Assembly (NCBI GenBank): GCA_964610345.1
Contig: CAZSVQ010000001.1
Span: forward strand, 280 to 62,348
From: an uncultured Candidatus Saccharibacteria bacterium
GTDB taxonomy: Bacteria > Patescibacteriota > Saccharimonadia > Saccharimonadales > JAGQNJ01
Direction: 5' to 3'
DNA length: 62,069 nt
Shown: positions 40,830 through 61,946 of the stretch, piece by piece
Layout of the letters: each line of letters begins with the position of its first letter
Numbering within the stretch: the stretch's first letter is position 1
Translations under genes and position numbers: made by a program
Notes under the pieces: generated by a model
Seen by the model: only the letters and a program-made list of their open reading frames with translations
What the model was told of the DNA's origin: nothing
Database searches by the model: none

Positions 40830-41003
40830 ATGTTTGGTTTAGGCGTACCAGAACTATTAATCATCTTATTGATTCTTTTGCTTTTGTTTGGAGCCAGCCG
40901 CTTACCAAAGTTGTCTAAGTCGCTTGGTGAATCAGCACGAGAACTCCGTAAAGGGCTAAACGACGACCCACACGGCAAAGACGATTCAAAAGAAAAAAGC
41001 TAA
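40830..41003 (+). CDS. tatA: Twin-arginine translocase subunit TatA/E (57 aa, below the ORF-track cutoff)
   Basis: Translated by hand: MFGLGVPELLIILLILLLLFGASRLPKLSKSLGESARELRKGLNDDPHGKDDSKEKS. This is the canonical TatA TM, hinge and amphipathic helix. Confidence 0.85.
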   Translation: MFGLGVPELLIILLILLLLFGASRLPKLSKSLGESARELRKGLNDDPHGKDDSKEKS

Positions 41004-41035
41004 TATAGATTAGCTAAGAAACACTGGGGGAGGGA

Positions 41036-41368: not shown

Positions 41369-41369
41369 T

Positions 41370-41864: not shown

Positions 41865-41866
41865 TC

Positions 41867-43093: not shown

Positions 43094-43117
43094 AATAGGG
43101 TAAAATAGACGTAAGCA

Positions 43118-44515: not shown

Positions 44516-44573
44516 TAACCGAACATGTTTTAAACATAATAAATAAAAGTTATACTATTAAAGAATTAAATAT

Positions 44574-45827: not shown

Positions 45828-45837
45828 GGTAAGTATT

Positions 45838-47106
45838 ATGAAAAATAATTATGCTAAACAATTTGAAGGAAAACTTTGGTTAGAGCTACGAAATGGAAAT
45901 ACAGGAAAAGTTGAAAATAAAATATCAGTAAAGAACTTTGCAGCTAATCAAACAAATGAATATGGTAAATGGCTGCAAAGGAACTCTTTTAAAACGGGAC
46001 TAAGTGCACTTGGTGTTACGGATACTGATTATTCACCACATCAAGCAGCCAACGCAATGGTATTAACTGATTCAACGCTAGTAGAAGATCCTTCGGGTGA
46101 ATGGTATATGCCTGGAAAAACTATAGGATACGCTATTAAAGCAACATATGCCGGAACGGATATTTGGCGAGGTACAGTAGCTACAACACAATTACAGGCA
46201 ACATCTGCATTAACAAAATGGACCTTCGATTGGCCTACACACGCAGGTAATGGGACAATTGGCTCTGTTGGGTGGGTTGATTCTCAATCGCAAGGATTAT
46301 CAGCAACAGAACCTATTTTTAGATCGACAATGACTATACTATCTGGGCACGGTAGCACAGGTAACTGGAATAATTTTGCGCGAGCCAATAGTTCAACAGC
46401 ATTTGGCAACACAGGCAACACAGTAATTTATGTATTAGATGGTTTAAGTTATGCACAAACTACAACATTCAATGTTAATGCACAATTTACGGCTGTTCGT
46501 GGCATTGCTTGGGACTCTGGCAATAACTTTCTTTGGGTGATCGGTGATAACAGTTCTGTCCGACGAATTGCTGCGTATAATTCATCTGGTGTATTGCAGA
46601 CAGGCCCTTTTGTGGTAACTACAAGGTCGTATATAAGGTTGGCGTATGATGGGTCAGCACTTTGGAGTATCACCCAAGATAGCGGTTCAAATCATACAGC
46701 CTGGAAGTTAAATACCTCAGACGGGTCAGATATGACTAACTTCCCTTTTGTTACAAATACATCTTCAGTTGTTTGCGGTTTAGCTTGGAATGATAATACA
46801 AATACACTTTGGATGCGCTATTCTGGTACAACGGGGTTTCAAGCTTGGGATACAAGTGGTAATAAAAAAGCAGTCGAGATATCTACAAGTGCATTTACAC
46901 CAAGTGCAGGCAATTATGCAAGTAATTTAAATTCTGGTTTAGATTTTGATTTTATTAATAGTTATGAAATTGCCGTTTCTCAAGCAACAAATACTGTCTA
47001 TAAGTGCCGATTAGATGGCATGGGTACGCGTGCTTTATTGCCAAGCCCTGTAACAAAAAATAACACACAAACTTTAAAATTAATCTACCAAATAAACTAT
47101 ACTTAA
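45838..47106 (+). CDS. Fibre/adhesin-like paralog C
   Basis: TKWTFDWPTHAGNGTI, LWVIGDNS, RSYIRLAYDGSALW and DGMGTRALLPSPVTKNNTQTLKLIYQINYT. Confidence 0.6.
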   Translation: MKNNYAKQFEGKLWLELRNGNTGKVENKISVKNFAANQTNEYGKWLQRNSFKTGLSALGVTDTDYSPHQAANAMVLTDSTLVEDPSGEWYMPGKTIGYAIKATYAGTDIWRGTVATTQLQATSALTKWTFDWPTHAGNGTIGSVGWVDSQSQGLSATEPIFRSTMTILSGHGSTGNWNNFARANSSTAFGNTGNTVIYVLDGLSYAQTTTFNVNAQFTAVRGIAWDSGNNFLWVIGDNSSVRRIAAYNSSGVLQTGPFVVTTRSYIRLAYDGSALWSITQDSGSNHTAWKLNTSDGSDMTNFPFVTNTSSVVCGLAWNDNTNTLWMRYSGTTGFQAWDTSGNKKAVEISTSAFTPSAGNYASNLNSGLDFDFINSYEIAVSQATNTVYKCRLDGMGTRALLPSPVTKNNTQTLKLIYQINYT

Positions 47107-47118
47107 TCGTATTGAGGG

Positions 47119-47643
47119 TTAAGATCCTAAAACTTGATTATTAAATAATTTGATTACCTGATCTTTTGCTAGTTTACTTTTTGTAATTGCTACAAAATAT
47201 CTATCATTTAGAATATATGCTGAATTACCACTCAGTAATGCTTCATCTTTAATGTCGGTTATTGTTATTTTGTTAGTTAAATTAGCTGTTTGAGCTTCCC
47301 AGGCTTCATTGACAATTTGTGAATTATTATCTTTAGAATACTTAATAACTATTTGTATATTGTTTTCTGATAACTCGTCTTTGGATTTGAAAGTGCAAGT
47401 ATCGCTACTTAAGCCACCGTTTATACTGGCTTTGGTCGTACTCGGTTTTTCGTAATCAATGTTAAATATTGACTTTAACTCTTCAGGAGTAATTTTGTTA
47501 CAAATATCTTTTTCCTGAGTGTTATTAATAGAGACAACCTCTTGCTTGACAGGGGCTTTTTTATTAGTTGATAATCTCCATACACCAAAAGCTAAGATTG
47601 GTATTAATATAATGGCGCCGAATATTAATATTCTTTTCTTCAT
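47119..47643 (-). CDS. Membrane-anchored or secreted hypothetical protein
   Basis: MKKRILIFGAIILIPILAFGVWRL signal/anchor. 174 aa. Confidence 0.45.
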   Translation of the reverse strand: MKKRILIFGAIILIPILAFGVWRLSTNKKAPVKQEVVSINNTQEKDICNKITPEELKSIFNIDYEKPSTTKASINGGLSSDTCTFKSKDELSENNIQIVIKYSKDNNSQIVNEAWEAQTANLTNKITITDIKDEALLSGNSAYILNDRYFVAITKSKLAKDQVIKLFNNQVLGS

Positions 47644-47751
47644 ATTGTTATTTTATGCAATTAACACAAGCAATGTAAAGTAGCTTGACAAGAATTGGCA
47701 GGGTGGTTACCATGTAAATGGTTAATTAAAAAATAAAAAACCAAAAATAAA

Positions 47752-47982
47752 ATGAACAATTTAGATAACATACAGCAGTTAATGGCTCAAGAAGTTTCGC
47801 GCCGGCAGTTTTTGTTACATACTGGAACTGCATTGTTGGCAATTTTTGGCATTTCGGGTTTAATACGTAATTTAAATTCTATATTTCCACAAAAGGTTGA
47901 TGAATCAGGTGCTTATGGCTGGAATGGATATTCTGGGATAGCAGGCAAAAAAAGCTCTTTGCAAAAGGCAGGTAAATTGTAA
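47752..47982 (+). CDS. 76-aa protein consisting mostly of a twin-arginine (Tat) signal peptide
   Basis: ..AQEVSRRQFLLHTGTALLAIFGISGLI.. matches S-R-R-x-F-L plus an h-region. Its stop overlaps the next start (TAATG). Confidence 0.55.
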   Translation: MNNLDNIQQLMAQEVSRRQFLLHTGTALLAIFGISGLIRNLNSIFPQKVDESGAYGWNGYSGIAGKKSSLQKAGKL

Positions 47983-48680
47983 TGGCACGCTTACCAATTC
48001 CTGGTCAAGATATCGGTACTTGGGGTCAGGTTTTAAATGAATTTTTAAATGTTGGACATAACCCTGATGGTACTCTAAAAATAAGTACTACGCCAGAAAC
48101 TCCAGATGCAAACTCGACTACCAAAGGTAAGCTACGCTTAGCTGGTGATCTTGGAGGTACGGCAGATAGCCCCACAGTTACATCAACCTCATTAACCTCG
48201 GCACTACCGATAAATCAAGGTGGTACAGGTTCGACAACGCAAAACTTTGTAGACATTACAAACAATCAAACCATTGGTGGAACAAAAAGTTTTAGCAGTA
48301 CAGTAAATGCTAGTATAAACGGCACGGCAGACAATGTTACTGGTGTTGTAGCTATCACCAACGGAGGTACCGGCTCTAACACCAAAAATTTTGTTGACCT
48401 TACAACCAATCAAACAATTGCTGGCAGTAAAACCTTTTCTGACGTGATTATTGGTGATATTGCTGGGAATTCTAATAACGTAAATGGGGTTGTGGCTATC
48501 ACCAACGGTGGTACCGGGCAAACTACCCCCGACGCAGCTCTAAATGCGTTACTGCCAAATCAAACAGGCAATAACGGCAGAGTATTGCAAACCGATGGCG
48601 CAACTGCTACCTGGGTTCAACCAGCCACAACAAATCTTGACGATATTTATGCTTTGCAGTGGATGGTAGTCGGCGCCTAA
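47982..48680 (+). CDS. Tail-fibre-like repeat protein with the conserved N-terminal LPIPG module
   Basis: [33 protein letters not shown], then ~44 aa repeats I(T/N)(N/Q)GGTGS.T.NFVD(I/L)T.NQTI.G.K.FS. It ends ..LQTDGATATWVQP.. . No signal peptide. Confidence 0.65.
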   Translation: MARLPIPGQDIGTWGQVLNEFLNVGHNPDGTLKISTTPETPDANSTTKGKLRLAGDLGGTADSPTVTSTSLTSALPINQGGTGSTTQNFVDITNNQTIGGTKSFSSTVNASINGTADNVTGVVAITNGGTGSNTKNFVDLTTNQTIAGSKTFSDVIIGDIAGNSNNVNGVVAITNGGTGQTTPDAALNALLPNQTGNNGRVLQTDGATATWVQPATTNLDDIYALQWMVVGA

Positions 48681-48705
48681 ATCCCAGAATTGTAAACTAA
48701 TAATT

Positions 48706-50580
48706 TTATACCTTAAGTTTTTTGGTTTTGCGCCAAGGGCCGTGAGCTCGCAGGGCATAAATTATAACTGTTACGTCAACAAGCTCTTGGATTATCGCAC
48801 CACTTGTAGCGTTGAATTTACCGGTAGAATAAATCAACATCAAAACTATACTTATAATAATACCAATCATAATACTTTGTTTGGCGATACTAAGAGTATT
48901 TTTGGCGATATCTAAACTTTGTGCAACTTTACTGACATCGTCTAACATGATTACAACATCTGCGGTTTCGCTAGCAGCTGTTGAGCCACGAGCCCCTAGT
49001 GCAATACCAACTTCTGAAGCTGTTAGTACTGGTGCGTCATTCACCCCATCACCAACAAAGGCAACCGGACGGTGTTTTAATTCTTCAATGGCGGTTAGTT
49101 TATCGGCTGGCAAGCAGTCTGCCTTTACATTAGTAATACCAAGTTTTTTAGCAATAGTTTGGGCCGTCGTTTTATTATCACCAGTAACCATCAGAGTGTT
49201 TTTAATGCCAAGTTTTTTAATTCGCGCAAGCATTGATTTGCTTTCTGGGCGGATTGCATCTTCAAAACTAATAGTGCCAATTACGTTTTCGTCAACCACT
49301 ACCAACGAGGTAGTATCTGTTAAAGTGCTGGCTTTTAGTTGGCTAGGCATGTTGATTTTGCTTGAGCGTACAAAATTATATTTACCGACAATGATTTGTT
49401 TATTGCCGGCATAGCCTAGCAAGCCATGACCAGCTACTTCTTTAACATTTTTTGTTTTAGGTAGTTTTAATTTCTTTTTTTCGGCTTCATTTACGACAGC
49501 CTGAGCCAGTATGTGGTTAGAGTTATGCTCGAGTGCTGCAGCATACCCTAGCACATCACATATTTTATTTTTTCCAAATGCCGTAACTTTTTTTACGGTC
49601 GGGCGCCCGACCGTTAATGTGCCGGTTTTATCAAAAGCAACAGTTTTGACATCAGCAAGCTGTTCAATTGCCCCACCGTTTTTTATTATAATGCCGTGCC
49701 TAGCAGCTCGGCTAATTCCAGAAATCAAAGCTATTGGCGCTCCCAAAATTAATGGGCAGGGAGTTGCTACAACGAGTACTTGTAAGAACCGCATAGAGTC
49801 ACCAGACATAATCCAAGCCCCTCCAGCAATGATAAAAGCTATAATAGTAAATGGAATACTATAACGATCAGCTAAACGGACAAATGGTGATTGAGAAGTA
49901 GAGGCTGATTTAACTAATTTTATTATTTGTTCATACTGGCTGTCGACAGAGGTGTGGATGGCTTTTATAGTAATTGTGCCGTCAACAGCGATTGCTCCAC
50001 TAAGTATGGTTTCTCCAATTTCTTTATTTATTGGCAGACTTTCCCCGGTAATGCTAGATTCGTCAAAACTTGAATCGCCTTCTAGTATTATACCGTCAAC
50101 TGGCACCACCTCACCTGGCTTAATCAAAATTTTATCACCAACTTGAACTTTACTAACTACTACATCAATAGTTTTACGGCCTTTTAAAATACGAGCTTGT
50201 TTAGGGGCGTTATTTAATAGTGTACTCAGTTCTGCCTTAGCGCGGTTTTCGGCATAATCTTCAAGTGCTTCACCACCGGTTAGCATCAAGACGATAATTA
50301 TTCCGGCCCAATATTCTCCAAGTACTATAGATGTAATGATTGCTGTAGCTGCAAGTATATCAACACCGTATGTGCCATGCCTAAGGTCTTGAATCATGCC
50401 CCAAACCAGAGGAATGGTGTTTAATATTGCCGTAACAGCAAGCAAAATATGAGCGGTCTTAGTAAAACCAGCAAAAGTTAGACACAGTGCAAATAAAATT
50501 GAAACTACAGTCCAACCAAATTGATAGTACTCTCTAAAAAATCGTCCAAGCTTTTTGAACACATCACCTCCTGTAATCAA
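48706..50580 (-). CDS. P1B-type heavy-metal translocating P-type ATPase with TPCP transmembrane motif, no N-terminal metal-binding domain
   Basis: TGES, DKTGTLT, GDGVNDAP, and TM motif VVATPCPLILG. The N-terminus starts directly with TM helices. Confidence 0.85.
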   Translation of the reverse strand: MITGGDVFKKLGRFFREYYQFGWTVVSILFALCLTFAGFTKTAHILLAVTAILNTIPLVWGMIQDLRHGTYGVDILAATAIITSIVLGEYWAGIIIVLMLTGGEALEDYAENRAKAELSTLLNNAPKQARILKGRKTIDVVVSKVQVGDKILIKPGEVVPVDGIILEGDSSFDESSITGESLPINKEIGETILSGAIAVDGTITIKAIHTSVDSQYEQIIKLVKSASTSQSPFVRLADRYSIPFTIIAFIIAGGAWIMSGDSMRFLQVLVVATPCPLILGAPIALISGISRAARHGIIIKNGGAIEQLADVKTVAFDKTGTLTVGRPTVKKVTAFGKNKICDVLGYAAALEHNSNHILAQAVVNEAEKKKLKLPKTKNVKEVAGHGLLGYAGNKQIIVGKYNFVRSSKINMPSQLKASTLTDTTSLVVVDENVIGTISFEDAIRPESKSMLARIKKLGIKNTLMVTGDNKTTAQTIAKKLGITNVKADCLPADKLTAIEELKHRPVAFVGDGVNDAPVLTASEVGIALGARGSTAASETADVVIMLDDVSKVAQSLDIAKNTLSIAKQSIMIGIIISIVLMLIYSTGKFNATSGAIIQELVDVTVIIYALRAHGPWRKTKKLKV

Positions 50581-50655: not shown

Positions 50656-51033
50656 ATGGTTATTTTGTTGGCTCTAAAATGGTGGTATAGCGCTGGCTGG
50701 CAATGGGTATGGACACAATCTGTTAGTGAACGTATCAACTGGGTAAATCAAGCCTTCTCAATTTCTGCTTTGGTGCGTACATGGTTTTCACCATTTAAGC
50801 AAACGTATAGTAAAGTCAACAAGGGCTCAATTGATTTTAGGGTTCAGGCGGCTGTAGATAATTTTGTATCTAGATTTATCGGGTCAATTCTCAGAACAAT
50901 AATTATTATTGCCGGGCTACTTTGTATGATATTGGCCGTGACTACTGGAGTGTTGGCAATAATTCTTTGGCCAGTTATTCCTTTAATGCCTCTAATTGCA
51001 ATTATCCTTAGCGTAAGTGGGCTAGGTGCATGA
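50656..51033 (+). CDS. Small Trp-rich membrane protein translationally coupled to the Clp-like ATPase
   Basis: 125 aa with C-terminal TM helices. Its stop overlaps the next start (ATGA at 51030). Confidence 0.5.
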   Translation: MVILLALKWWYSAGWQWVWTQSVSERINWVNQAFSISALVRTWFSPFKQTYSKVNKGSIDFRVQAAVDNFVSRFIGSILRTIIIIAGLLCMILAVTTGVLAIILWPVIPLMPLIAIILSVSGLGA

Positions 51034-53453
51034 AAGATTCATTGCACTGTAATATTAAAAGTGCCAGAGCTGTGAAAGCGCGTTTTGCAACACATTTTGA
51101 CAATACTCTTGTTAGGCAATCACTAACAGTAGTTAATTTTATATGTATCGCAGGACTAGTGTGGCTAATATTTGTAACTAAAAGTACTTTAGGTTGGTTG
51201 TTGCTAGCACCGTTTTCGATAAATATTTTCTTTTTGGCTTGGTATCACGGTGAGCTTTCAGATCTAACGCCAACATCTAAGTTAGATGAAGTTAGAGATT
51301 TAAGTGATGTTGTTAGCAGGCGATTGCTGGCACAGTTGTCTGACTCAATGACGCCAAAAGATCTTGCTAAATGTATTACTAAACAAGAGGGTGGTTATTT
51401 TTTTGGAGCCAGATTTGGGATTGGCCAAGATTTTTTATTGCAATATTCAGCTGATGATGAAGGCTCTAGTGCCTTGGTGTGGAGTCGAGCGATAGAGTTA
51501 GCGCTCAAGACAGGCAGTCAAGAAATTGACTCCGGAGATTTGGCAGGAGCGTTAATATTAACTATCCCTGAGGCAGAGCCAACATTGGCACGTTTAGCAA
51601 TTGATGCTAGTGATATTAAAAATGGCGTAGAATGGCTTGCTCATATTCGTCGGATGATTGAACGAGCAGAGGAGAAAAGTCATTTTGGTGGAATTGGCAG
51701 AGATCTTAGTTTTGGTTGGGCTCCAACTCTAAACCATGTGGGATTCAACATTACGGATAGCATTCAGAACGGTGCATTTTTAAGTCGTGCTGTTGTTAGT
51801 CGTGAGCAAAATATTGATCAGATTATGCGGTTACTAGCTCAGCATGGAAGACGCAATGCAGTGTTAGTCGGCGAACCAGGAGTCGGCAAAACAACTTTAA
51901 TATATAGTTTGGCTCAACGGTTATTGTTAGGCAACTCAGCTATTCCTCGTGAGTTGATGTTTCAGCAAATAATAACACTCGACGCTGCTAACTTAATAAC
52001 TAACGCCAAAGCTCGTGGGCAACTAGAGTCTCTATTAATTAGAGTTTTTAACGAGGCGATTCATGCAAAAAATGTAATTATTTTTCTTGATGATGCGCAA
52101 CTATTTTTAAAAGATGGTACTGGCTCAGTGGATTTATCTAATTTACTTTTACCAATATTACAGGGTGGAGCATTGCGTATAATTTTGTCGTTGACTGATC
52201 AAGAATGGTTACGTTTGAGTCAAGAAAATCCAGGGTTGGCTCAGCTTGCAAATAGGGTGGCCGTCAAGCCGTTAGAACACGACGAAACTATTCAAGTAGT
52301 TGAAGATGAAGTTGTGCTACTTGAAGCAAAAAACAAACAAGTCTATATGTATCAATCAATAAACGAGGCTTATAACTTAGCCGAGCGATTCATTCATGAA
52401 CAAGCATTTCCCGGCAAAGCTATAAAATTATTAGAGGCAGCCGCAAACTTCCCAGAAAGTGAACATTTTGTGACCGCAAAAAGTGTTAAGTTAGCGGTTG
52501 AAAAATCTTTTGATGTTAAGGTGCAATCGGCTGACACACAAGCTGAAAAAGATACCCTACTAAATTTGGAGCAAAAAATTCACGAACGTATGATTAACCA
52601 AACTCGAGCTGTAACTTTAGTTAGTGACGCATTAAGGCGTGCTCGGAGCGGGGTGCGTAACCAAAATAAACCAATTGGTACATTCTTGTTCTTGGGCCCA
52701 ACTGGAGTTGGTAAAACTGAGTTATCAAAAGCTTTAGCTTTTGTGTATTTTGGTGGCGAAGAACGTATGGTTAGGATTGATTTAAACGAGTATTCTCACG
52801 CAGAGGATACTAGTCGCTTGTTGGCAGTGGGCGCAATCGACCCTTATAGTTTATGTGCTCAAATTGCCAAACATCCATTTAGTGTGGTGCTACTGGATGA
52901 AATCGAAAAGGCCCACCCCAATGTTTTAAATATCCTACTTCAAATGCTTGACGAGGGTGTTCTGCGTGACGCTAATAATAAACCAATCAGTTTTAGGGAT
53001 GCAATTATTATTTGTACCAGTAATGCCGGAGCTGAGCAGATTAGGGCACACATTAACCAAGGACAAAATCTAGAAGATTTTGAAGAAGCGTTAGTGGATG
53101 AACTAATTAATGCTAATATTTTTAGACCAGAATTTTTAAATCGGTTTGATGAAATCGTATTATTTAGGCCGCTTAAAAAAGAAGAGCTCATTCAGCTAAT
53201 TGACTTACTGCTACACTCACTTAACAAAACACTGGCCGATAGAAAGGTCAGTGTTGTGTTGACTGATCGCGCCAAAGAACTATTAGCAACCCGTGGCTAT
53301 GATCCACGCCTGGGCGCACGCCCCTTGCGCCGAGTTATGCAAAGAGCGGTAGAAAATTTGGTGGCTCAAAAACTGTTGTCTAGCCAGGTAGGCCCCGGAC
53401 AGCAAATCCAGTTAGACGCACCAGAACTTCACAAAGTACTAGAATCTAGGTAG
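51030..53453 (+). CDS. Membrane-anchored two-ring Clp/Hsp100-family AAA+ ATPase (no M-domain, no ClpP-docking loop recognised)
   Basis: Two N-terminal TM helices and a Clp_N-like region. NBD1 has Walker A GEPGVGKTT and Walker B IIFLDDAQ. NBD2 has Walker A GPTGVGKTE and Walker B VVLLDEIEKAHPNV. The C-terminus is D2-small (GARPLRRVMQRAVEN). Confidence 0.8.
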   Translation: MKDSLHCNIKSARAVKARFATHFDNTLVRQSLTVVNFICIAGLVWLIFVTKSTLGWLLLAPFSINIFFLAWYHGELSDLTPTSKLDEVRDLSDVVSRRLLAQLSDSMTPKDLAKCITKQEGGYFFGARFGIGQDFLLQYSADDEGSSALVWSRAIELALKTGSQEIDSGDLAGALILTIPEAEPTLARLAIDASDIKNGVEWLAHIRRMIERAEEKSHFGGIGRDLSFGWAPTLNHVGFNITDSIQNGAFLSRAVVSREQNIDQIMRLLAQHGRRNAVLVGEPGVGKTTLIYSLAQRLLLGNSAIPRELMFQQIITLDAANLITNAKARGQLESLLIRVFNEAIHAKNVIIFLDDAQLFLKDGTGSVDLSNLLLPILQGGALRIILSLTDQEWLRLSQENPGLAQLANRVAVKPLEHDETIQVVEDEVVLLEAKNKQVYMYQSINEAYNLAERFIHEQAFPGKAIKLLEAAANFPESEHFVTAKSVKLAVEKSFDVKVQSADTQAEKDTLLNLEQKIHERMINQTRAVTLVSDALRRARSGVRNQNKPIGTFLFLGPTGVGKTELSKALAFVYFGGEERMVRIDLNEYSHAEDTSRLLAVGAIDPYSLCAQIAKHPFSVVLLDEIEKAHPNVLNILLQMLDEGVLRDANNKPISFRDAIIICTSNAGAEQIRAHINQGQNLEDFEEALVDELINANIFRPEFLNRFDEIVLFRPLKKEELIQLIDLLLHSLNKTLADRKVSVVLTDRAKELLATRGYDPRLGARPLRRVMQRAVENLVAQKLLSSQVGPGQQIQLDAPELHKVLESR
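53238..53305 (+). repeat. Left copy of a perfect 68-nt direct repeat (inside the 3' end of the Clp-like gene)
   Basis: GATAGAAAGGTCAGTGTTGTGTTGACTGATCGCGCCAAAGAACTATTAGCAACCCGTGGCTATGATCC is identical at 58809-58876. Confidence 0.95.
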
Positions 53454-53671
53454 CTCAGCTCCAGGTTATGAGTTTGCTATTTGGGCTACAAATTGAGCCC
53501 AATACTTAGCCGGTGTCTAAAACATATATCAAGTTGATAACGATATTTGATGTTTGAAATGCGTCGATATACTTTAATCAGTAAAAGATGCCGTAGACAT
53601 TGACGGTGAAATGTAATATTATAATGCTAACAAACAAGATTATTGAACAATAATCAATAAAGTTAAACAAT

Positions 53672-55507
53672 ATGTCTAAGCATAACCGACAATCACAAAG
53701 AATGAGATATTTCAGCACCTTAGCTGGGCCATATCAAAAATTACAAAGAAAACACCCATATAAAGTAAGCTACAGTAAGCTTAATAGTAAAGACAATATA
53801 TTGTATCGTTTTTGGGTAATAGCAATGGCATATATGTCTTTAGGGATAGTGCTAGCGTTTACGGCTGTTTTGTTTCGACCCGAGCATTGGATAATTAGGC
53901 TTCAGCCTGAATCATCGCTACATACATGGAATTTGTTAATGTTGGTGTGTTTGGTTATGTTGCAGATTTTTGTGATTATTGGTACTATTTCGGCCACTAG
54001 ATCAACGCTAAAAGCTCGTAATCCAATTCCGGTCCGGCCACCTAGAGGGTTGCGTGTAGCATTTGTGACTACTCGTGCTCCCGGGGAGCCGATAGATTTA
54101 GTGCGCACCACTTTAGAGGCCGCCAAAAGGGTACGTTACAAACAGGGCACGGTAGAGGTGTGGCTACTTGATGAAACTAAGGATCCTGCGCTAAAAACTC
54201 TGTGCAGACAAACTGGCGTAAAATACTTCAGCCGAAAAAATGTAGCTAAATGGAATACTTTAAAGCCAAAATCAAAACTACATCGTTTATATGCTATCGG
54301 AAGTAAAAATGGTAAAAACTACATCAAGCCAGATCAATTTTATGCGACACGAACAAAGCACGGTAATTTTAATGCGTGGTTAGCTTATTTAGAGAGCAAG
54401 CATATTAGATATGATATCTTGGCGGGGGTAGATACTGACCATGTTCCGGAACCGAACTTCTTAGAGCGCATTTTGGGCTATTTTCGTGATGATGATGTTG
54501 CGTTTGTGGTTGGTCCACAAGTTTATGGTAATTATACTGTTGGTGCTAGCGGATTGGTTACACGGTGGGCTGAATCGCAGGCATCGTTTTTTCAAAGTAC
54601 AATTCAGCGTGCCGGTAATGCTAGTAAATCGCCGATGTTTGTGGGCACAAATTACGCTGTAAGAATACCGGTGTTGCAACAAATAAGAGGTTTCCAGCCG
54701 TGCATAACTGAGGATATGGCAACAGGTTTAGCTATTCACGCTAGTCAAAATCCAAGTACTGGCAATCACTGGGAGTCGGTCTACACGCCCGATGTACTGG
54801 CAGTGGGTGAGGGTCCGGAAGCCTGGGCGCCATTCTTCACGCAACAATGGCGCTGGGCAGGTGGGTCTTTTGATACTTGGCGATGCATAGTCTGGAAACT
54901 AGGGTATCGTATTCCGTTCAGAGCAATGTTGCACTATCTATTGATGCTCGTTTACTATCCAATTTCTGCTTTAACATGGATTTTAGCAGTTGCAAGTAGT
55001 TTAATGTATTTGACGACAGGGGCTACAGCTATTCTTGCTCCTTGGGGAATGTTTATGGCGTTATATCTTATGTCGATGGTGATGCAGTTGAGCTTATATT
55101 TTTGGAACCGTCGCTTTAATGTGTCGCCACACGAGCCAGAAGGTTCTTACGGAGTAGCGGGCATGGTTATGTCTTCTTTGGTTGCCCCGGTATACTCTTC
55201 GGCTCTGATGGGAATACTAGTGGGTAAAAAACCAAATTTTGTAGTTACTGCTAAAGGTGGTGGTGCTAGTTTGGATCGGTGGACGGCATTTAGAGTGCAC
55301 TTGCAATGGGCAATAATATTAGCAGTGGCGTTAGGTTATGGTATTTATGCCAAAAATGATCACCCGGCAATGCTTATTTGGGTCGGGTGCCTACTGGCTG
55401 TTTGCTTGTTGCCATGCGTATTGGCTTTGAATTTGTCTATGAAGAGTTGGTCGCAAAACCTAATTATTAAATTGAGGCCTGAATCGAAAGGAGTTCACCA
55501 TGCATAA
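53672..55507 (+). CDS. cslA: Cellulose-synthase-like family 2 glycosyltransferase (CslA-like)
   Basis: Polytopic, with GT2 motifs DTDH (DxD), ITEDMATG (TED) and QQWRWAGG (QxxRW). It overlaps the downstream gene by 8 nt. Confidence 0.8.
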   Translation: MSKHNRQSQRMRYFSTLAGPYQKLQRKHPYKVSYSKLNSKDNILYRFWVIAMAYMSLGIVLAFTAVLFRPEHWIIRLQPESSLHTWNLLMLVCLVMLQIFVIIGTISATRSTLKARNPIPVRPPRGLRVAFVTTRAPGEPIDLVRTTLEAAKRVRYKQGTVEVWLLDETKDPALKTLCRQTGVKYFSRKNVAKWNTLKPKSKLHRLYAIGSKNGKNYIKPDQFYATRTKHGNFNAWLAYLESKHIRYDILAGVDTDHVPEPNFLERILGYFRDDDVAFVVGPQVYGNYTVGASGLVTRWAESQASFFQSTIQRAGNASKSPMFVGTNYAVRIPVLQQIRGFQPCITEDMATGLAIHASQNPSTGNHWESVYTPDVLAVGEGPEAWAPFFTQQWRWAGGSFDTWRCIVWKLGYRIPFRAMLHYLLMLVYYPISALTWILAVASSLMYLTTGATAILAPWGMFMALYLMSMVMQLSLYFWNRRFNVSPHEPEGSYGVAGMVMSSLVAPVYSSALMGILVGKKPNFVVTAKGGGASLDRWTAFRVHLQWAIILAVALGYGIYAKNDHPAMLIWVGCLLAVCLLPCVLALNLSMKSWSQNLIIKLRPESKGVHHA

Positions 55508-57482
55508 TAATCAAAAGTCAATTGCCCGTCGTGGTCGGCCTTTGATCCTAGTTATAAGCACATTATTAGCTATCAGTGTAGCATCGTCGCCAGTATCGGT
55601 GCCGGCCTTTTCTGAATGGTGGTACGAAAATAAAGTAAATTCAATTGATTACAAAAAACTATATGGACACTGGCAAGTATTAGATTTACCCGAAGAGTTT
55701 AAGCTAAATACTATTCATGGCGCCGCCTTGCCAACAGGCAAAATCTTATTAGTGGCTGGCTCGGGCAATAATAGACAAGACTTTAATGCTTTTCACAATG
55801 AAGGCAAAATACAGGTTTTAAAAACTGTTGTGCTTGACCCAGAGACCATGGATATTAAGACGGTAGAGACTCCAAGTGATTTATTTTGTAGCGGTCATGC
55901 CTTGCTCCAGGGCGGCAACTTACTAATTGCCGGTGGTACCAGTGGATATGAGTTGTTAGAGAACGAAGTAAAAAAACCAGCCGGTGCAATGACTATACAT
56001 AACGAAGACCCGGATAGTCAACCGCGAACTTTCCCCAAGGGCACTAGGTTTACCAGCCCTAAAGGTAAGGTTTATGAATCAACCGAAGAATTTATTTTAC
56101 AGCCTGCTCACAAAATGGATCACGGTCAAGGTAATGTTGAAATCCATCATAGTAGTAGCAAGGTGTTCGTTGAAGCTGTATCAGAAGATCCTAGCTATAT
56201 AACAGAAGAACATCTTCAGTATAGTATCGAGGGTCTTACTGGCACTGATGAACATAATATCTATGGTCAGGGTGGACCAATGACCCTAAATAAGCAAGAT
56301 TTTCGGGGCGATGAACGTACCTACGAATTTGACCCAGTTTCTGAGCAGTATGTTCGCGTGGGTGACTTAAAAGAGAGTCGTTGGTATGCGTCATTGCCGG
56401 TTTTGACGAACGGTGAGGTTCTGGCCGTGTCTGGATTAGATAATACAGGCGTTATCACTGAAACTACAGAGAAATACCACCCAGATACCAAGCAGTGGGA
56501 GTGGGGACCAAACCAGGCAATGCCAACTTACCCAGCCTTATTCCGCACATTAAACCCAGATGAGTTGTTTTATTCTGGTTCTAGTGCTGGTTATGGACCG
56601 GCAGACAAAGGGCGTGAGCCAGGCTTTTGGAATATTAAAACTGATAAGTTTACTACCGTATCTGGATTGCGGGACACTGACATACTAGAAACAAGTGCAT
56701 CGGTTATGTTGCCACCCAAAAAAGGTAGCAACGATGGTAGCCAGAGTTGGCGTGTTATGGTTGCCGGAGGTGGTGGAGTCGGTGAGTCGCCACTGGTCAC
56801 CAAGCGAACAGACATCATTGACCTCACTGAATCGAACCCAACCTTCACGCCTGGTCCTGACTTACCGAGTCCATTACGTTATGTAAATATGGTAGTAACG
56901 CCGTGGGATGAGGTGTTTGCAGCTGGTGGTACCGCTGACTATCGCTCCAAGGGTGAAAGCTATTCTCATAAAACGGTTATGATTAATCCGGTAGACAATA
57001 AAGTTACACCAATGGCAGACGAGCGTGTTGGTCGCGGTTATCACTCAGGTGCGGTCTTGCTTAAAGATGGGCGTATTTTGGCATTCGGTAACGACCCACT
57101 ATTTAGTGATAAGGATAATACTCAAATTGGCAAGTTTGAACAACGTCTTGAAATATTTACGCCAGCTCACTTTTTTCATGGCGACCGTCCGATGCTGATT
57201 GGTAAAGAAAGTTTACAGGCCAAAAGAGGTCAAGAACTTAGTTTTAGTAGCCCTCAAGCTAGCAGTATTAAAACTGCCCGCTTGATTCCACCTAGTAGCA
57301 CCACGCATGTAACAAATATAGAGCAACGATCAGTGGGAGCCATAGTTAAACATAGCGGTGGGAATGTAAACATTCAAATACCCGATGACGAAAATCTACT
57401 CCCTAATGGATGGTATATGCTATTCGTAACCAATGAAAACGGAATTCCTTCTGTAGCTAAAATGATACAAATTGTTCGCTAA
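55500..57482 (+). CDS. glxA: Membrane-anchored radical copper oxidase (glyoxal/galactose oxidase-like, GlxA-like) with C-terminal DUF1929-type domain
   Basis: LFCSGHALLQGGNLLIAGG (cross-link Cys), ESRWYASL (Tyr) and GRGYHSGAVLLKDGRILAFG (His ligand). The C-terminus is LPNGWYMLFVTNENGIPSVAKMIQI. Confidence 0.8.
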   Translation: MHNNQKSIARRGRPLILVISTLLAISVASSPVSVPAFSEWWYENKVNSIDYKKLYGHWQVLDLPEEFKLNTIHGAALPTGKILLVAGSGNNRQDFNAFHNEGKIQVLKTVVLDPETMDIKTVETPSDLFCSGHALLQGGNLLIAGGTSGYELLENEVKKPAGAMTIHNEDPDSQPRTFPKGTRFTSPKGKVYESTEEFILQPAHKMDHGQGNVEIHHSSSKVFVEAVSEDPSYITEEHLQYSIEGLTGTDEHNIYGQGGPMTLNKQDFRGDERTYEFDPVSEQYVRVGDLKESRWYASLPVLTNGEVLAVSGLDNTGVITETTEKYHPDTKQWEWGPNQAMPTYPALFRTLNPDELFYSGSSAGYGPADKGREPGFWNIKTDKFTTVSGLRDTDILETSASVMLPPKKGSNDGSQSWRVMVAGGGGVGESPLVTKRTDIIDLTESNPTFTPGPDLPSPLRYVNMVVTPWDEVFAAGGTADYRSKGESYSHKTVMINPVDNKVTPMADERVGRGYHSGAVLLKDGRILAFGNDPLFSDKDNTQIGKFEQRLEIFTPAHFFHGDRPMLIGKESLQAKRGQELSFSSPQASSIKTARLIPPSSTTHVTNIEQRSVGAIVKHSGGNVNIQIPDDENLLPNGWYMLFVTNENGIPSVAKMIQIVR

Positions 57483-57492
57483 AGAAACCGAT

Positions 57493-58638
57493 TTACTCAG
57501 CGTTAGAGGCAAGCTCTAATGCTTTTTCGGTAATAAAAACACCGGCGTCAGGATTCCCGCGACAAGATCCATCGCTTTCGCCCGGGACTTTAATCCAGAC
57601 GTAGGCATGGAGGTTTTTATCATTCACGTTGGTAGTTGGGGCTTTTCCAAGACCACGCCCTTCGGGGTTGCACCAACGAGCTTCACCGGTAACAGTGTTT
57701 GGCGCAGAGCCACGACCATTACGACTAGTATCTATCAAAATTCCTTTTTCTTTGCCGATTAGCGCCACTAGGTCTTGTGCCCACTTCGTGATATCGGGTG
57801 TGGCAATAAAGTTCGAAACATTTACGGTTATGCCACTGGCATTATCTATGCCAGCGCGTTTCAAGGGTTCTACTAGCTTGCTGGCATCAGGGAACCACTC
57901 GGAGTGCCCGCTATCTAGGTAAACCCCAATAACCTTAGGATTTTGCTTCAATGTTGTAATAGCCGAAGCTAGAGTAGCATAACGCTCATTGGTCTGTTTG
58001 TTCGTCAGGCAGTTACTTTCAATTGTGTGAGCCAACGCATCTGGTTCGAGTGTGACCACTGTTTCTGATTTGATCTTCGAGGATATATTTGCAACCCAAT
58101 TTAAGTATGATTCGCTTGATTTAAATCCGCCACTCGAGTAGCCAGCGCAAGCATCGCGATGCGGGATGGCGTAGATTTGGTAAAGGGCTACTTTATTCTG
58201 CTGTAGTGCTGATTGTGATATTTGCTCAACCAGGTATAAATCACTGTTGCCGTTAGGGTCTTCAGTTGTTGGTCCATTGAGCCATATTGCAGTTGGTTGA
58301 TTTGATATTTTTTCGAGTAGCTTTGCCTTGGATGTATCATTTTGAGCTATGTCTGTAATGGCTTTATTGACGGTACGTGTGGTATGAATATAAAATTCTT
58401 TGCCAGCTAGTGGCGACGATGACTTTGGGGTATTGTTGTTTGTCGTGCTGTTAATTGTGGGTGTTGACAGCTGTTCGTAGCGATTATTGTTCGGCGACGA
58501 CCAGAAATACCAACTCAAGGCACTTAGAATTACAAAGACGAGCCCAATGGCTAAAATCAATTTTAGCGAGAGTTTATTTTTGTGCTTGTTCCGTAAGTTA
58601 CCGGGACTTACACGTTTTGCTTGTTCCTTGCGTGGCAT
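57493..58638 (-). CDS. Membrane-anchored glycoside hydrolase family 6 (endoglucanase, CslZ-like)
   Basis: GH6 signatures VALYQIYAIPHRDACAG and VTLEPDAL, plus WIKVPGESDG. N-terminal TM anchor. Confidence 0.75.
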   Translation of the reverse strand: MPRKEQAKRVSPGNLRNKHKNKLSLKLILAIGLVFVILSALSWYFWSSPNNNRYEQLSTPTINSTTNNNTPKSSSPLAGKEFYIHTTRTVNKAITDIAQNDTSKAKLLEKISNQPTAIWLNGPTTEDPNGNSDLYLVEQISQSALQQNKVALYQIYAIPHRDACAGYSSGGFKSSESYLNWVANISSKIKSETVVTLEPDALAHTIESNCLTNKQTNERYATLASAITTLKQNPKVIGVYLDSGHSEWFPDASKLVEPLKRAGIDNASGITVNVSNFIATPDITKWAQDLVALIGKEKGILIDTSRNGRGSAPNTVTGEARWCNPEGRGLGKAPTTNVNDKNLHAYVWIKVPGESDGSCRGNPDAGVFITEKALELASNAE

Positions 58639-58774
58639 GAACTATAGTCTAGCAAGAAATACAGGAATATTCACGTCTTTGTATATACCCATGTCACGGG
58701 GAACAACCCAAAGCTATAAATATTATAAGGTCAACCTTTTTAGATCGCGATATATGAACGGCTAAATTAGCGGA

Positions 58775-59023
58775 TTTTTCACTGATATCTCTTCATAAAA
58801 AGCTAGCAGATAGAAAGGTCAGTGTTGTGTTGACTGATCGCGCCAAAGAACTATTAGCAACCCGTGGCTATGATCCTCGTTTAAGCGTTTGCCCGTTGCA
58901 CCGAGTCATGCTGTGTTAAAGAAAAGGTTGTTGCTCAAAAAACTACTTGTTGGTCAAATAAACCCTGGCCAACAAATCTAGTTCGACACCTCAGAGCCCA
59001 ATCAAGCCTTAGATATCTGTTAA
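58775..59023 (+). pseudogene. Decayed duplicate of the last ~80 codons of the Clp-like gene (contains the right 68-nt repeat at 58809-58876)
   Basis: Reads LHKKLADRKVSVVLTDRAKELLATRGYDPRLSVCPLHRVMLC*. Recognisable but frame-broken homology continues to ..GPGQQIQLD.. (..NPGQQI*FD..). Confidence 0.8.
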
Positions 59024-59055: not shown

Positions 59056-60081
59056 CTAGATACTATTTTCTAGTATGGTTATGACATTATTCCATAACGT
59101 CAAAGCTTCCTTGCTAGCGTGTTCAGATTTTGGTGAAATAAGTTGGGTGAATATTACGTAAGCTGTTTCATCATTTTCAACAAACCCTATGAATGACCCG
59201 ATATCGTTATTTGTATAAATTAGGTTGTTATTAATCATAGATGATGTTCCTGTTTTTCCGCCAATAGATTTAAATTTTGAATCTTGCTTTAAGTTGGCTT
59301 TGTATTGATCCATGTTATATGTAAGTAATTTTTTAAACTCGTTAACAGTTGACTCCTTAATTCTTTTATCTGGATTAGTCAAGGCAATATCGTAAGCATT
59401 AGTTAGTTGTAGAGGTGTTGCATTAATACCAACCCCGAATGAAGACAAACTGAACCTGTATTCTGGATTATTTTTTAAATTTATTGGTGGCAAGTAGCCA
59501 CTATCTTCATTAGTGATATTATATCCAGTTTTTTTATTGAGTCCATAAACTTCTTGCAAGTTCAGGTTCCATATTCTTCTTCTTTCCGATGGTTTACTAT
59601 CTAATGATTTATATATTTCAACGATGCCGGTATTAATGGAGTTAACGGAAATATCTGCAATAGAATATGTTCCCGAGCTAAATACTAAATGATTCTGTAT
59701 TGTTTTTCCACCAATTGATTCATAATTTTTTACGTTGTATATAGACTCAATGGTTTTTTGATTTTTTTCTATTGCTGTTTGAATTAATAGTGGTTTTATG
59801 ATGGAGCCAGGCTCCCATGATGCAAGGGCAAGGTTTAATTTATTGCCACATTTATCAATATGATAGCCAGGTATTGAACTGACTACACTTACGAGTTTGT
59901 CCGAATTAGCATTTTTAATGACTATTGAGCCACCGACACTTTCAGTTCTTTTTATCTCTTTCGAGAGTAATATTTCTGCAGAAGATTGAATATTCGTATC
60001 CATGTTTTCATTAATTTTTGGATAGCACTTTATTTGTTGTGGCGAAGATAAAAATAACAATACTGATAAAATAACAGCCAA
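59056..60081 (-). CDS. Penicillin-binding-protein transpeptidase-domain protein
   Basis: SxxK (GSIIKP), SxN (SVNS) and KTG (GGKTGTS). 341 aa with a signal/anchor. Confidence 0.65.
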   Translation of the reverse strand: MAVILSVLLFLSSPQQIKCYPKINENMDTNIQSSAEILLSKEIKRTESVGGSIVIKNANSDKLVSVVSSIPGYHIDKCGNKLNLALASWEPGSIIKPLLIQTAIEKNQKTIESIYNVKNYESIGGKTIQNHLVFSSGTYSIADISVNSINTGIVEIYKSLDSKPSERRRIWNLNLQEVYGLNKKTGYNITNEDSGYLPPINLKNNPEYRFSLSSFGVGINATPLQLTNAYDIALTNPDKRIKESTVNEFKKLLTYNMDQYKANLKQDSKFKSIGGKTGTSSMINNNLIYTNNDIGSFIGFVENDETAYVIFTQLISPKSEHASKEALTLWNNVITILENSI

Positions 60082-60100
60082 GATAACTACAACTTTTAAT

Positions 60101-61375
60101 TTAATACGACAACCTTGTTTTTAATTTATAATTTACAGGTAGCTTATATATTAGCGAAGCTAAAGAAATAAAAAATAGTGAAGTCAATTCAATGCTGGGA
60201 ACATTAAACACGGCGTTTAAAAATAAGATTAGCACAATAATTGATAGCACGCCAGTTTCGGGGTCGCGTGACAATAGCCCAAGAATTATTCCGAATAGCG
60301 CGATAGCGAACAATAAAAATGAAAAAATTAATCCAAAATAATACGCCATATCAAGAAATAAATTATGTGTTGAAGAAAAGACGATTGATTGGTTCAAGGT
60401 ATCGGCTAAATCTGCTGGAACTTGATTTATGTCATTGATTGATACAGGTAATGAACCAGGCCCGTTACCGAATACGATATTATTTTTTGACACATCCAGT
60501 AAAGACAAATAATACATGCTTGATCTGTACGAAGAGCCTTGATTGATTCTATTGGCCTGGAATCTGTAAAAGTAATTTTTCTGGGTAATTGCTAGTAGTG
60601 GCAACAACACAACAATCGTCAAAACACATAAAAGTATTTTCTTCGATTTTATATTAAATTTTAATGTAATTAAACCTAAAGATATAAGTAAACTTAAATA
60701 GCCAATACGTGATTGTGTTAGAAGTAGTATTATTATAGCTAAGATCAGGGTAATATAATGTAGGAGTAGTAATTTATTTTCTGTATTTTTATTTATTAAT
60801 TTATAAAAAATTATAACTATTACTAAAACTGCATACATGGCTAAAGTTGTAGACTGAACAAGCAGCCCACTAATTCTAATGCCGTGCCAAATATTGTCAA
60901 AATCAATAAGAATAGAAAAGCTTAAAATTATTGTAAATATAGTTATTGCTGAACTAGAAGAGATGTGTCTGGTAAACGTTTTTCTATTAGTAACAGCTAA
61001 AACAACAAAGCATAACCAACTAAGGATACCTAAATACACAGGGGGTGTACCTAGTAAAATTTCACTAATTGGCTGTGAACTTTTTATCAAGCTACCCAAA
61101 ACAACTAATAATACAATAAGAAATATTGTTTTAAACTGGGCACGGACTTTATTGAACCGTTTAAAATCTTTTACAATCTCTACATGATTATAAAACAGAA
61201 TACCTGTAGAGATCCCGAATAATGCAAGGGCGCGAAGTGTACTAATGGCTGTGTAATTGTTCGGAATATATATTAGCGGAATGCATAGTAATGCTAATAA
61301 CGATAGATGATTTTTGTTAATTATGTTATATATTTTGTTGACATTTGTAATTTTGCCAATTAAAGCTAACATCAC
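60101..61375 (-). CDS. O-antigen ligase / Wzy-like polytopic membrane protein
   Basis: About 10-12 TM helices, with the STHNLFLDMAYYFGLI motif (HN.(F/Y)L..(E/D)..G) typical of Wzy_C. Very AT-rich. Confidence 0.55.
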   Translation of the reverse strand: MMLALIGKITNVNKIYNIINKNHLSLLALLCIPLIYIPNNYTAISTLRALALFGISTGILFYNHVEIVKDFKRFNKVRAQFKTIFLIVLLVVLGSLIKSSQPISEILLGTPPVYLGILSWLCFVVLAVTNRKTFTRHISSSSAITIFTIILSFSILIDFDNIWHGIRISGLLVQSTTLAMYAVLVIVIIFYKLINKNTENKLLLLHYITLILAIIILLLTQSRIGYLSLLISLGLITLKFNIKSKKILLCVLTIVVLLPLLAITQKNYFYRFQANRINQGSSYRSSMYYLSLLDVSKNNIVFGNGPGSLPVSINDINQVPADLADTLNQSIVFSSTHNLFLDMAYYFGLIFSFLLFAIALFGIILGLLSRDPETGVLSIIVLILFLNAVFNVPSIELTSLFFISLASLIYKLPVNYKLKTRLSY

Positions 61376-61415
61376 TTAATACTAACATTTATAGCAAAAA
61401 TATGTATTGAAATAT

Positions 61416-61946
61416 TTATTTACCGCCACTAGGGTTGGGGACGGGGCACATATTAAATACAGAACAATCGTTAAAGAATGCGGTCCATGTATTAGGGCCA
61501 ACTACGCCATCGGGAGCTGTATTTTTACCTGCGGCACCTTTTGCTTTTTGAAATGCAATTACTTTTTGTTTTGTTGATTCCCCGTATATTCCATCTACAG
61601 CTACATATCCACCAACTGTCGGTGAATTTTTACTGTTTCCAGCTTTGGTTTGAGCGGTTGTCCAGTTATTTAGGCCTACTTGTATAGCATAAACACAAGG
61701 CCCTCGACTGCCTACACCCTGTGTTGGAGGTATGTCACTGGGTGGTTGCTGTATGCATAGTCTAGCCTGATCATTATTAAGATAACTTGCATAATATGCA
61801 GTGTATGCACTACTTCTATTTAACATATAAACACCCAGAGCACCGAAAGTTAGAATAATTGCCATAATTATAAAAAACTGTCGTTTTGAAAAAGAGCCAT
61901 TTTTTACTTTAACTTGTTTATTTGTTGTTTTCTTTTTTGATTTCAT
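61416..61946 (-). CDS. Membrane-anchored peptidoglycan-binding (PG_binding_1) domain protein
   Basis: VYAIQVGLNNW...VDGIYGESTKQKVIAFQKAKG...PDGVVGPNTWTAFF. Confidence 0.6.
   Translation of the reverse strand: MKSKKKTTNKQVKVKNGSFSKRQFFIIMAIILTFGALGVYMLNRSSAYTAYYASYLNNDQARLCIQQPPSDIPPTQGVGSRGPCVYAIQVGLNNWTTAQTKAGNSKNSPTVGGYVAVDGIYGESTKQKVIAFQKAKGAAGKNTAPDGVVGPNTWTAFFNDCSVFNMCPVPNPSGGK

Follow-up and report, generated by a model that had tools for sequence, protein, structure and literature searches.

A putative cslA-glxA-cslZ-type glycan cassette of actinobacterial affinity at the clpC 3' end of a Saccharimonadales genome

The DNA considered here, referred to as the window, is a 62,069-nt stretch of a contig (CAZSVQ010000001.1, positions 280 to 62,348; assembly GCA_964610345.1) from an uncultured Candidatus Saccharibacteria bacterium, and the element in question is a set of three genes at positions 53672-58638 encoding a cellulose-synthase-like glycosyltransferase of family 2 (GT2), a radical copper oxidase and a glycoside hydrolase of family 6 (GH6). 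This trio appears to be an intact, self-contained cassette orthologous to the cslA-glxA-cslZ module of actinomycetes; taken as a whole, the best explanation proposed, namely the identity of the cassette, a mechanism by analogy with Streptomyces and an ancient inter-phylum history, is given a probability of about 0.75. In Streptomyces (SCO2836-2838 / SLI_3187-3189), the same three families occur in the same order and orientation, with a cslA-glxA overlap and a convergent GH6 gene, cslZ, downstream of glxA (PMC3543389, PMC9040799), and the complex of CslA and GlxA synthesises cellulose from UDP-glucose in vitro (PMC11022532). In the window, cslA and glxA overlap by 8 nt (ATGCATAA) and the GH6 gene converges on glxA across a gap of 10 nt; the coordinates of the three open reading frames (ORFs), the overlap and the convergence of the third gene are exactly those given in a preliminary description of this DNA.

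The second protein aligns end to end with GlxA of S. lividans (PDB 4UNM) at E = 1e-161, and the likeness to the known module lies far beyond chance. It matches the NCBIfam profile NF052501 'radical copper oxidase GlxA' over positions 4-644 of 645 with 786.9 bits, and comprises the GlxA-specific beta-barrel also known from Streptomyces (PF21110, 92 bits, residues 160-257) and a galactose oxidase-like E-set domain (PF09118, the former DUF1929, 69 bits, residues 571-658). Its motifs are F129-C130-S-G-H, R294-W295-Y296, Y514-H515-S and T602-H603-V, in which C130 and Y296 would form the cross-link pair, W295 would be the stacking Trp, and Y514, H515 and H603 the copper ligands. In the alignment, C130, Y296, Y514, H515 and H603 correspond to S. 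lividans C121, Y289, Y501, H502 and H589, and W295 to Trp288, the S. lividans numbers other than W288/Y289 being those attributed to Chaplin et al. (2015). Since an offset of +30 applied to the chain numbering of 4UNM reproduces the published W288/Y289 (PMC11611005), the window residues therefore map to C121, Y289, Y501, H502 and H589. The copper-site residues and the stacking Trp are invariant in 27 diverse Saccharimonadales homologues. The FCSG Cys, RWY Tyr, YHS His and DUF1929-type C-terminus reported in the preliminary description are thus all present, and the alignment to the S. lividans structure that it had called for finds the cross-link pair and the Tyr/His/His set all conserved.

Regarding its location, GlxA has a single N-terminal transmembrane (TM) segment at residues 14-36 as judged from hydrophobicity, an anchor that is kept across the Saccharimonadales clade and is shared with the Streptomyces protein, as are the Cys-Tyr/Tyr/His/His copper site and the stacking Trp (PMC3543389, PMC9040799, PMC11022532). 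Ahead of this helix lies a conserved Arg-rich motif (window 55500-55610), RRGxP in Saccharimonadales and RRRARR in the Streptomyces-type proteins, which could reflect positive-inside topology or a twin-arginine signal; TatC is encoded in the same window (38131-39138).

As for the first protein, Pfam and NCBIfam return GT2 families together with a weak TIGR03030 CelA match (95 bits), and the best match among solved structures is BcsA (E = 8e-15). The motifs D254-T-D256-H257, T346-E-D348 and Q391-Q-W-R-W395 and the gating loop F523-V-V-T-A-K528 agree with the published motif set (PMC11022532), so that the DxD, TED and QxxRW motifs noted earlier are joined by the DxD-following His and an FxVTxK gating loop; seven hydrophobic segments predict a multi-pass topology. 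The CslA-type clade is split from BcsA by a long branch at 100% bootstrap, with window CslA on the actinobacterial side and 40% identical to CslA of Actinomycetospora. The proteobacterial and clostridial operons encoding BcsA-BcsB-BcsZ and CcsA-CcsB-CcsZ share these GT2 motifs and the same logic, that is a processive GT2, an obligatory membrane-anchored extracytoplasmic partner and a glucanase (PMC11022532), whereas the partner there is BcsB or CcsB instead of a copper radical oxidase and the hydrolase belongs to GH8 or GH5 instead of GH6.

In the third protein, the GH6 domain (PF01341, 197 bits) is the sole domain and no carbohydrate-binding module (CBM) is found; its best structural match is Mycobacterium tuberculosis CelA1 (1UOZ, E = 3.5e-52), and the catalytic Asp residues are represented by D162 in HRD, D200 in EPD, D242 in DSGH and D356 in PGESDG. 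Together with a predicted N-terminal TM helix at residues 20-48, these features bear out the membrane-anchored GH6 glucanase of the preliminary description, which had also named cslZ as a GH6-type gene, in agreement with the literature (PMC9040799, PMC3543389). Streptomyces cslZ (SCO2838) encodes a GH6 protein without CBM that is membrane-associated and lies on the opposite strand after the cslA-glxA operon, and its substrates include cellulose, chitin and peptidoglycan (PMC9040799); the catalytic acid of CslZ is D120. Streptomyces CslZ is a lipoprotein, whereas the window GH6 carries a signal-anchor helix, its N-terminus lacking a Cys lipobox; the membrane anchoring is thus predicted to be kept by means other than a lipoprotein signal. 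Among copies of the main Saccharimonadales group, GH6 diverges faster than the products of the other two genes (41-61% vs 58-77% identity). One Saccharimonadales genome (L006) has a second GH6 gene (6553-7788, minus strand) immediately upstream of cslA, which clusters with the M. tuberculosis CelA1 type and not with the cassette GH6 genes, suggesting an independent GH6 acquisition.

The cassette is widespread among Saccharimonadales. More than 100 distinct GlxA clusters at 90% identity were found, 53-78% identical to window GlxA; all of these matches have a low-GC amino-acid composition, several carry a Saccharimonadales label, some come from contigs of 0.3-1.1 Mb, and public annotation names these proteins 'galactose oxidase early set domain-containing protein'. 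Upstream of glxA, cslA is present in six species-representative Saccharimonadales metagenome-assembled genomes (MAGs), a Joint Genome Institute (JGI) contig, locus L035 and eight more metagenome loci. Of the 13 Saccharimonadales loci whose downstream sequence is long enough, 12 (L001-L006, L010, L035-L038 and L041) show overlapping cslA-glxA with an adjacent convergent GH6 gene, and the predicted translational coupling of cslA and glxA is conserved. The exception is L039 (cslA 241-1890, glxA 2039-3991, on an 8529-nt contig), with no GH6 gene in the 4.5 kb downstream: the hydrolase is not always kept beside the cslA-glxA pair. The neighbours of the trio differ in every Saccharimonadales genome examined. 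In L035, a basal branch whose backbone is that of Saccharimonadales (UvrC 74-77% identical to labelled MAGs), the trio (6305-11464) has 59% GC and a GC content at third codon positions (GC3) of 0.63-0.71, compared with 49% GC and a GC3 of 0.50 in the flanks, a strong leftover high-GC signature that is consistent with an actinobacterial origin or with recent uptake from a GC-rich donor.

Outside Saccharimonadales, overlapping cslA-glxA and an adjacent GH6 gene also occur in about 30 high-GC loci, including Actinomycetospora. The metagenome loci at 37-57% GlxA identity all have a GC of 0.66-0.75 and carry cslA directly upstream wherever the contig reaches; in the high-GC loci, the downstream GH6 gene is either convergent (Streptomyces-type) or co-directional (Actinomycetospora-type). 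Remoter oxidases (32-40%) have neither cslA nor GH6 partners. In an exhaustive library of representatives at 50% identity, all Saccharimonadales GlxA fall into one cluster and the high-GC GlxA-type proteins into at least 10, the next full-length GlxA-type representatives being from Actinomycetospora, Streptosporangium, an Actinobacteria MAG and unlabelled high-GC proteins.

Neighbour-joining trees were computed from frame-checked sequences with Kimura-corrected distances and 100 bootstraps, leaving out L007 (Solirubrobacteraceae), of which the genes are frameshifted; the GlxA tree was rooted on nine partner-less oxidases and the CslA tree on BcsA and an unrelated GT2. For GlxA, the outgroup split, the GlxA-type clade and the Saccharimonadales clade are each supported at 100%, and the latter lies within a 93% group that also holds Streptomyces, Streptosporangium and Actinomycetospora; earlier branches lead to an Actinobacteria MAG and to another high-GC clade (98%). 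For CslA, the Saccharimonadales clade (100%) is sister to the Streptomyces-type group at 71%, other high-GC lineages again branching earlier. As for GH6, the Saccharimonadales cassette proteins form one bipartition at 92% with L035 basal, and the remaining neighbours are all high-GC.

The identities tell a comparable story. The window proteins are 44-46% (GlxA), 40% (CslA) and 35-38% (GH6) identical to their actinobacterial counterparts, and 77-78%, 62% (70% over the partial L010 gene) and 60%, respectively, to those of other Saccharimonadales. In pairwise comparisons the loci fall in the same order of identity for all three proteins, and the three genes have therefore been inherited together. 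For the GlxA of basal Saccharimonadales, identity is 47-49% to those of Streptomyces, Actinomycetospora and Streptosporangium, orders which are 48-53% identical among themselves and 38-44% to the GlxA of deeper Actinobacteria, a pattern incompatible with vertical descent from an ancestor shared by the two phyla. This pattern and the rooted trees favour a single ancient transfer of the whole trio from Actinomycetota to Saccharimonadales.

The genome in which this copy resides carries ComEC, RuvABC, RecA and type IV pilus genes in the window backbone, and the organism recurs in about 30 sample blocks. An 807-aa protein identical to its ClpC is in the collection searched, although exact look-ups of the ClpC and penicillin-binding protein products returned no entry, in the latter case probably owing to a different start-codon call. 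Homologues of its ClpC are 61-87% identical, the labelled ones belonging to Candidatus Saccharibacteria, Candidatus Saccharimonadales or the Patescibacteria group; on these sequence grounds the source genome is assigned to Saccharimonadales, in keeping with the genome of Candidate Phyla Radiation (CPR) type recognised in the preliminary description. Unlike the Streptomyces locus, the cassette lies within an insertion of 5.57 kb at the clpC 3' end (Table 1). Exact 68-nt direct repeats at 53238-53305 and 58809-58876 (longest common substring; repeat family D2) form the cores of a duplication of about 250 nt of the clpC 3' end, which brackets the insertion. The pseudo-3' end on the right is a copy of the last ~85 clpC codons with two in-frame stops and a frameshift, its final stop being homologous to that of clpC. 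Between the two copies, the core is 100% identical and the arms are 48% identical on the upstream side and 61% on the downstream side. On the left, the upstream arm belongs to the native clpC body, 80-85% identical to relatives; the last ~50 clpC codons (53306-53453), past the core, form the arm that adjoins the island, and this island-carried arm is a clpC end of Saccharimonadales type. In relatives whose ClpC is 83-87% identical (L028-L034), the same genes are found upstream (P-type ATPase, a 125-aa ORF and clpC) and no trio follows clpC; with L028, L030 and L031, collinearity stops exactly at the clpC stop, 53453, with unrelated DNA beyond. The island bounded by 68-nt repeats in the preliminary description is thus real, a bracketed insertion that the closest relatives lack.

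With the islands that integrate at the 3' ends of tRNA, tmRNA or protein-coding genes, this insertion shares the bracketing direct repeats, a target restored by an element-borne 3' end, a remnant of the displaced 3' end and an unoccupied site in close relatives. It differs from them in that no integrase or recombinase was detected, no other occurrence at clpC was found in the loci examined, and no circular or empty junction was recovered: neither a same-species empty-site allele nor a circular junction was found in Logan unitigs or, by exact matching of a 41-nt core probe, in the set of JGI metagenomes. The Logan k = 31 unitigs break within the 68-nt repeat; a 5589-nt contig (compared with a repeat spacing of 5571 nt) that begins 30 nt before the end of the left core and stops within the right core was considered as a circular form and rejected as k-mer graph behaviour. 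Bracketing repeats were not found round the trio in six other Saccharimonadales loci. The island genes have a GC of 0.43-0.45 and a GC3 of 0.37-0.43, the backbone a GC3 of 0.31 +/- 0.04 (49 ORFs), so that the trio stands 0.08, or about 2 standard deviations, above the backbone and far below the ~0.74 of an actinomycete locus. Elsewhere, the difference in GC3 between trio and flanks is +0.13 in L010 and +0.17 in L035, and there is no positive offset in five other genomes. Most likely, the copy in the window was already adapted to Saccharimonadales and was acquired secondarily from another, somewhat GC-richer lineage of that order.

Table 1. Cassette genes and bracketing features, with positions given in the window
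Feature	Coordinates	Strand	Length	Description
clpC-type AAA+ chaperone	51030..53453	+	807 aa	Pfam AAA_2, ClpB_D2-small
Left 68-nt repeat	53238..53305	+		in frame in clpC, codons 737-759 (DRKVSVVLTDRAKELLATRGYDP)
Leader of cassette, intergenic	53454..53671	+		contains sigma-70-like promoter match
cslA	53672..55507	+	611 aa	cellulose-synthase-like processive GT2, ~7 TM segments
glxA	55500..57482	+	660 aa	membrane-anchored radical copper oxidase
cslZ-like GH6	57493..58638	-	381 aa	signal-anchor helix, Ser/Thr/Asn-rich linker, GH6 catalytic domain
Stem-loop + T-run	57499..57523	+		17 nt past glxA stop, within 3' end of convergent GH6 gene
Decayed clpC 3'-end duplicate	58764..59015 (about)	+		includes right 68-nt core 58809-58876

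Within the leader, a promoter-like TAGACA-17-TATTAT at 53594-53622 is a consensus match only, the count of such matches not exceeding that in shuffled sequences; the stem-loop at 57499-57523, a possible terminator of cslA-glxA, is likewise a pattern match with a count not above shuffles.

By analogy with Streptomyces, CslA, as a BcsA-like membrane GT2, would polymerise UDP-glucose to a beta-1,4-glucan and extrude it. GlxA, translationally coupled to it, would be the obligatory second subunit, a single-pass copper-radical oxidase with a Cys-Tyr cofactor, of which the ectodomain would act on, or chaperone, the emerging glycan chain, and the membrane-anchored GH6 protein would trim the glycan and/or open the peptidoglycan, allowing the polymer to reach the cell surface. 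The trio would have moved once, long ago, from Actinomycetota to Saccharimonadales, and then diversified and changed genomic sites within the latter; in the window, the 5.57-kb insertion at the clpC 3' end would have brought a replacement gene end, the displaced end being left as a pseudogene remnant.

Several points weigh against this interpretation. The 786.9 bits of GlxA are slightly under the 800-bit cut-off of NF052501, a threshold that was set using actinobacterial sequences. Pfam (E < 0.01) detected no PilZ domain in CslA, in which only about 85 residues follow the gating loop; in Streptomyces CslA, a PilZ-like element is itself tentative (PMC11022532). The lytic polysaccharide monooxygenase gene lpmP, the stomatin gene stlP and the Sco/DtpA copper-maturation genes are not beside the trio in any Saccharimonadales locus examined; in the window, L002-L006, L010 and L035, lpmP, stlP (SPFH) and a gene for the peptidoglycan-binding protein SCO2835 were not found adjacent to it, whereas the Streptomyces locus has lpmP, stlP and SCO2835. 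Product, substrate and the role of GlxA are presumed from Streptomyces. The trees are neighbour-joining only, and the sister group differs, being Actinomycetospora-type for GlxA (56%) and Streptomyces-type for CslA (71%). As regards the insertion, the relatives without trio at clpC could hold it elsewhere in their genomes, no recombinase or integrase domain was found in or beside the 5.57-kb insert, with only the three cassette genes between the repeats, and an identical core between arms of 48-61% identity is not simply explained by one old event; a region of site-specific crossover, or gene conversion at a later time, may account for it.

Other histories have to be weighed against an ancient transfer. 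In the preliminary description, the island was proposed to have delivered the trio from an actinobacterial host to its epibiont; the homology, the CPR host, the insertion and the actinobacterial affinity in that proposal hold, and the recent and direct delivery does not. The island is real, lacking in close relatives and above the backbone in GC3, and each of the three genes has its nearest non-CPR relatives among actinobacteria, which would suit such an event; yet the proteins are only 35-46% identical to actinobacterial ones vs 60-78% to those of other Saccharimonadales, the GC3 is only mildly above the backbone and the GC of 0.43-0.45 and GC3 of 0.37-0.43 contrast with a GC of 0.66-0.75 in actinobacterial loci, and the repeat arm borne by the island is itself a Saccharimonadales-type clpC end. 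With the window sequence deep in a 100%-supported Saccharimonadales clade of more than 100 clusters, the trees effectively refute a recent transfer, which is very improbable; this clade is indeed deep and CPR-specific, and it retains an actinobacterial affinity. That the cassette was ancestral in Patescibacteria or Saccharimonadales and was taken up by Actinomycetota, or that both inherited it vertically, is a less remote prospect and still an improbable one. The deep backbone of the neighbour-joining trees is only moderately supported (some nodes at or below 78%) and Liman et al. argued for lateral acquisition of Streptomyces glxA (PMC3543389), but the high-GC lineages are paraphyletic to the Saccharimonadales clade in the rooted trees (93%, 71%), a single 50%-identity cluster of Saccharimonadales GlxA faces at least 10 of the high-GC type, the 47-49% identity of basal GlxA to Streptomyces, Actinomycetospora and Streptosporangium exceeds the 38-44% for deeper Actinobacteria, and the L035 trio is 17 GC3 points richer than its flanks. 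An assembly or binning artefact, in which actinobacterial DNA was mis-joined into a CPR contig, might be invoked since short-read graphs are ambiguous where the k = 31 unitigs break in the 68-nt repeat; it is scarcely credible, however, given that the trio is low-GC like its host, that many independent assemblies place it within long contigs of Saccharimonadales (up to 1.1 Mb), and that separate samples yield identical copies including the clpC-end junction.

Besides its history, the use of the cassette may have changed. It could mainly be an offensive or host-interaction tool and not a means of building a glycan on the epibiont's surface, GH6 and GlxA for example attacking or modifying the cellulose-like tip glycan or peptidoglycan of the actinomycete host. 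Cultivated Saccharibacteria live on Actinobacteria, and the faster divergence of GH6 (41-61% vs 58-77%) and the second GH6 gene beside cslA in one genome (L006) would fit this scheme, as would the ability of CslZ to hydrolyse cellulose, chitin and peptidoglycan (PMC9040799). It appears quite unlikely nonetheless, as the conservation of all CslA synthase motifs and of the cslA-glxA coupling across the clade speaks for ongoing synthesis, both GH6 and GlxA are predicted to be anchored in the epibiont's own membrane, and L039 retains cslA-glxA without GH6. A broader and doubtful scenario is that soil and environmental Saccharimonadales took the complete hyphal-tip glycan machinery of their actinomycete hosts, retained it over a very long period and coat themselves with the cellulose-like, copper-oxidase-modified polymer that the host displays, as a host-matched adhesin or camouflage in epibiont attachment, the cassette being a recombinase-less mobile unit re-acquired at gene ends such as clpC.

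Regarding possible vehicles, a phage-borne cassette was rejected as no viral-contig relative was found, and so was an actinomycete module carried on a plasmid, the one find being an orphan glxA paralogue on a Streptomyces linear plasmid. The latter gene, 46% identical to window GlxA, lies at 632950-634878 of the 737-kb linear plasmid of Streptomyces sp. NBC_01431 (L026), surrounded by transposase genes, IS110 included, and neither cslA nor a GH6 gene is listed alongside.

Around the cassette, a 624-aa P-type ATPase with the motif ATPCPLIL is encoded at 48706-50580 (minus strand), two genes upstream of the island; its reading as a cassette-linked copper pump was rejected, as the gene is kept beside clpC in relatives without the trio. 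Immediately to the right of the island, a run of envelope genes with a GC of 0.31-0.38 (59056-61946, minus strand) encodes a penicillin-binding protein transpeptidase-domain protein, a Wzy_C/O-antigen-ligase-like protein and a TM-anchored PG_binding_1 protein, and in the closest relatives none of the three follows clpC; the last of these (61416-61946), 2.8 kb from the trio and outside the insert, is reminiscent of SCO2835. Further upstream, ~29450-48700 is a block of about 19 kb that is lineage-specific at this position, the homologues of 28.2-29.4 kb abutting the P-type ATPase at 48.7 kb in L028 and L030. It contains a sortase, two Gly_rich_2 proteins (31431-33396, local GC 0.49), a family 1 glycosyltransferase, a flavin mononucleotide reductase, a group I intron, tRNA-Met, the TatC mentioned above, a histidine kinase, a lectin-like protein and three paralogous proteins of 417-465 aa (repeat families D3/D4). 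The group I intron is complete (36236-36457, minus strand; Rfam RF00028, 60.9 bits), with no detectable tRNA or rRNA gene around it (36100-36900). A weak match to a tmRNA end (36174-36270, E = 0.025) abuts it and a short HNH-like ORF lies nearby (36673-36867); an intron-split tmRNA as the intron host was not supported, splicing in silico giving no ARAGORN tmRNA.

The module itself is well characterised; here it occurs in an unexpected phylum and has an informative evolutionary history. A 2013 survey found GlxA orthologues among Actinobacteria only from Streptomyces and Frankia (PMC3543389), and the CslA-GlxA cellulose route has been described as "conserved in streptomycetes" and linked to filamentous tip growth (PMC11022532); full-text searches on GlxA or cellulose in Saccharibacteria and on galactose oxidase in Patescibacteria retrieved no report of the module outside Actinobacteria. 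Unlike the filamentous Streptomyces, the host here is a non-filamentous CPR bacterium of ~1 Mb, and an apparently intact module under evident purifying selection is present in more than 100 lineages of such ultra-small, genome-reduced bacteria; its function is therefore not intrinsically tied to hyphal growth. The presence of the module implies copper acquisition and cofactor maturation in organisms apparently without the adjacent maturation genes of Streptomyces, and these small, low-GC, naturally minimal CslA and GlxA could help to show what makes a copper radical oxidase necessary as the partner of a cellulose synthase. For the Saccharibacteria themselves, the cassette is a concrete candidate for a surface polymer, possibly an attachment factor, and one may speculate that in an epibiont the polymer serves attachment or envelope protection. 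Finally, the nesting of these genes in actinobacterial diversity is a molecular record of a long-standing ecological link that joins Saccharimonadales to Actinomycetota.

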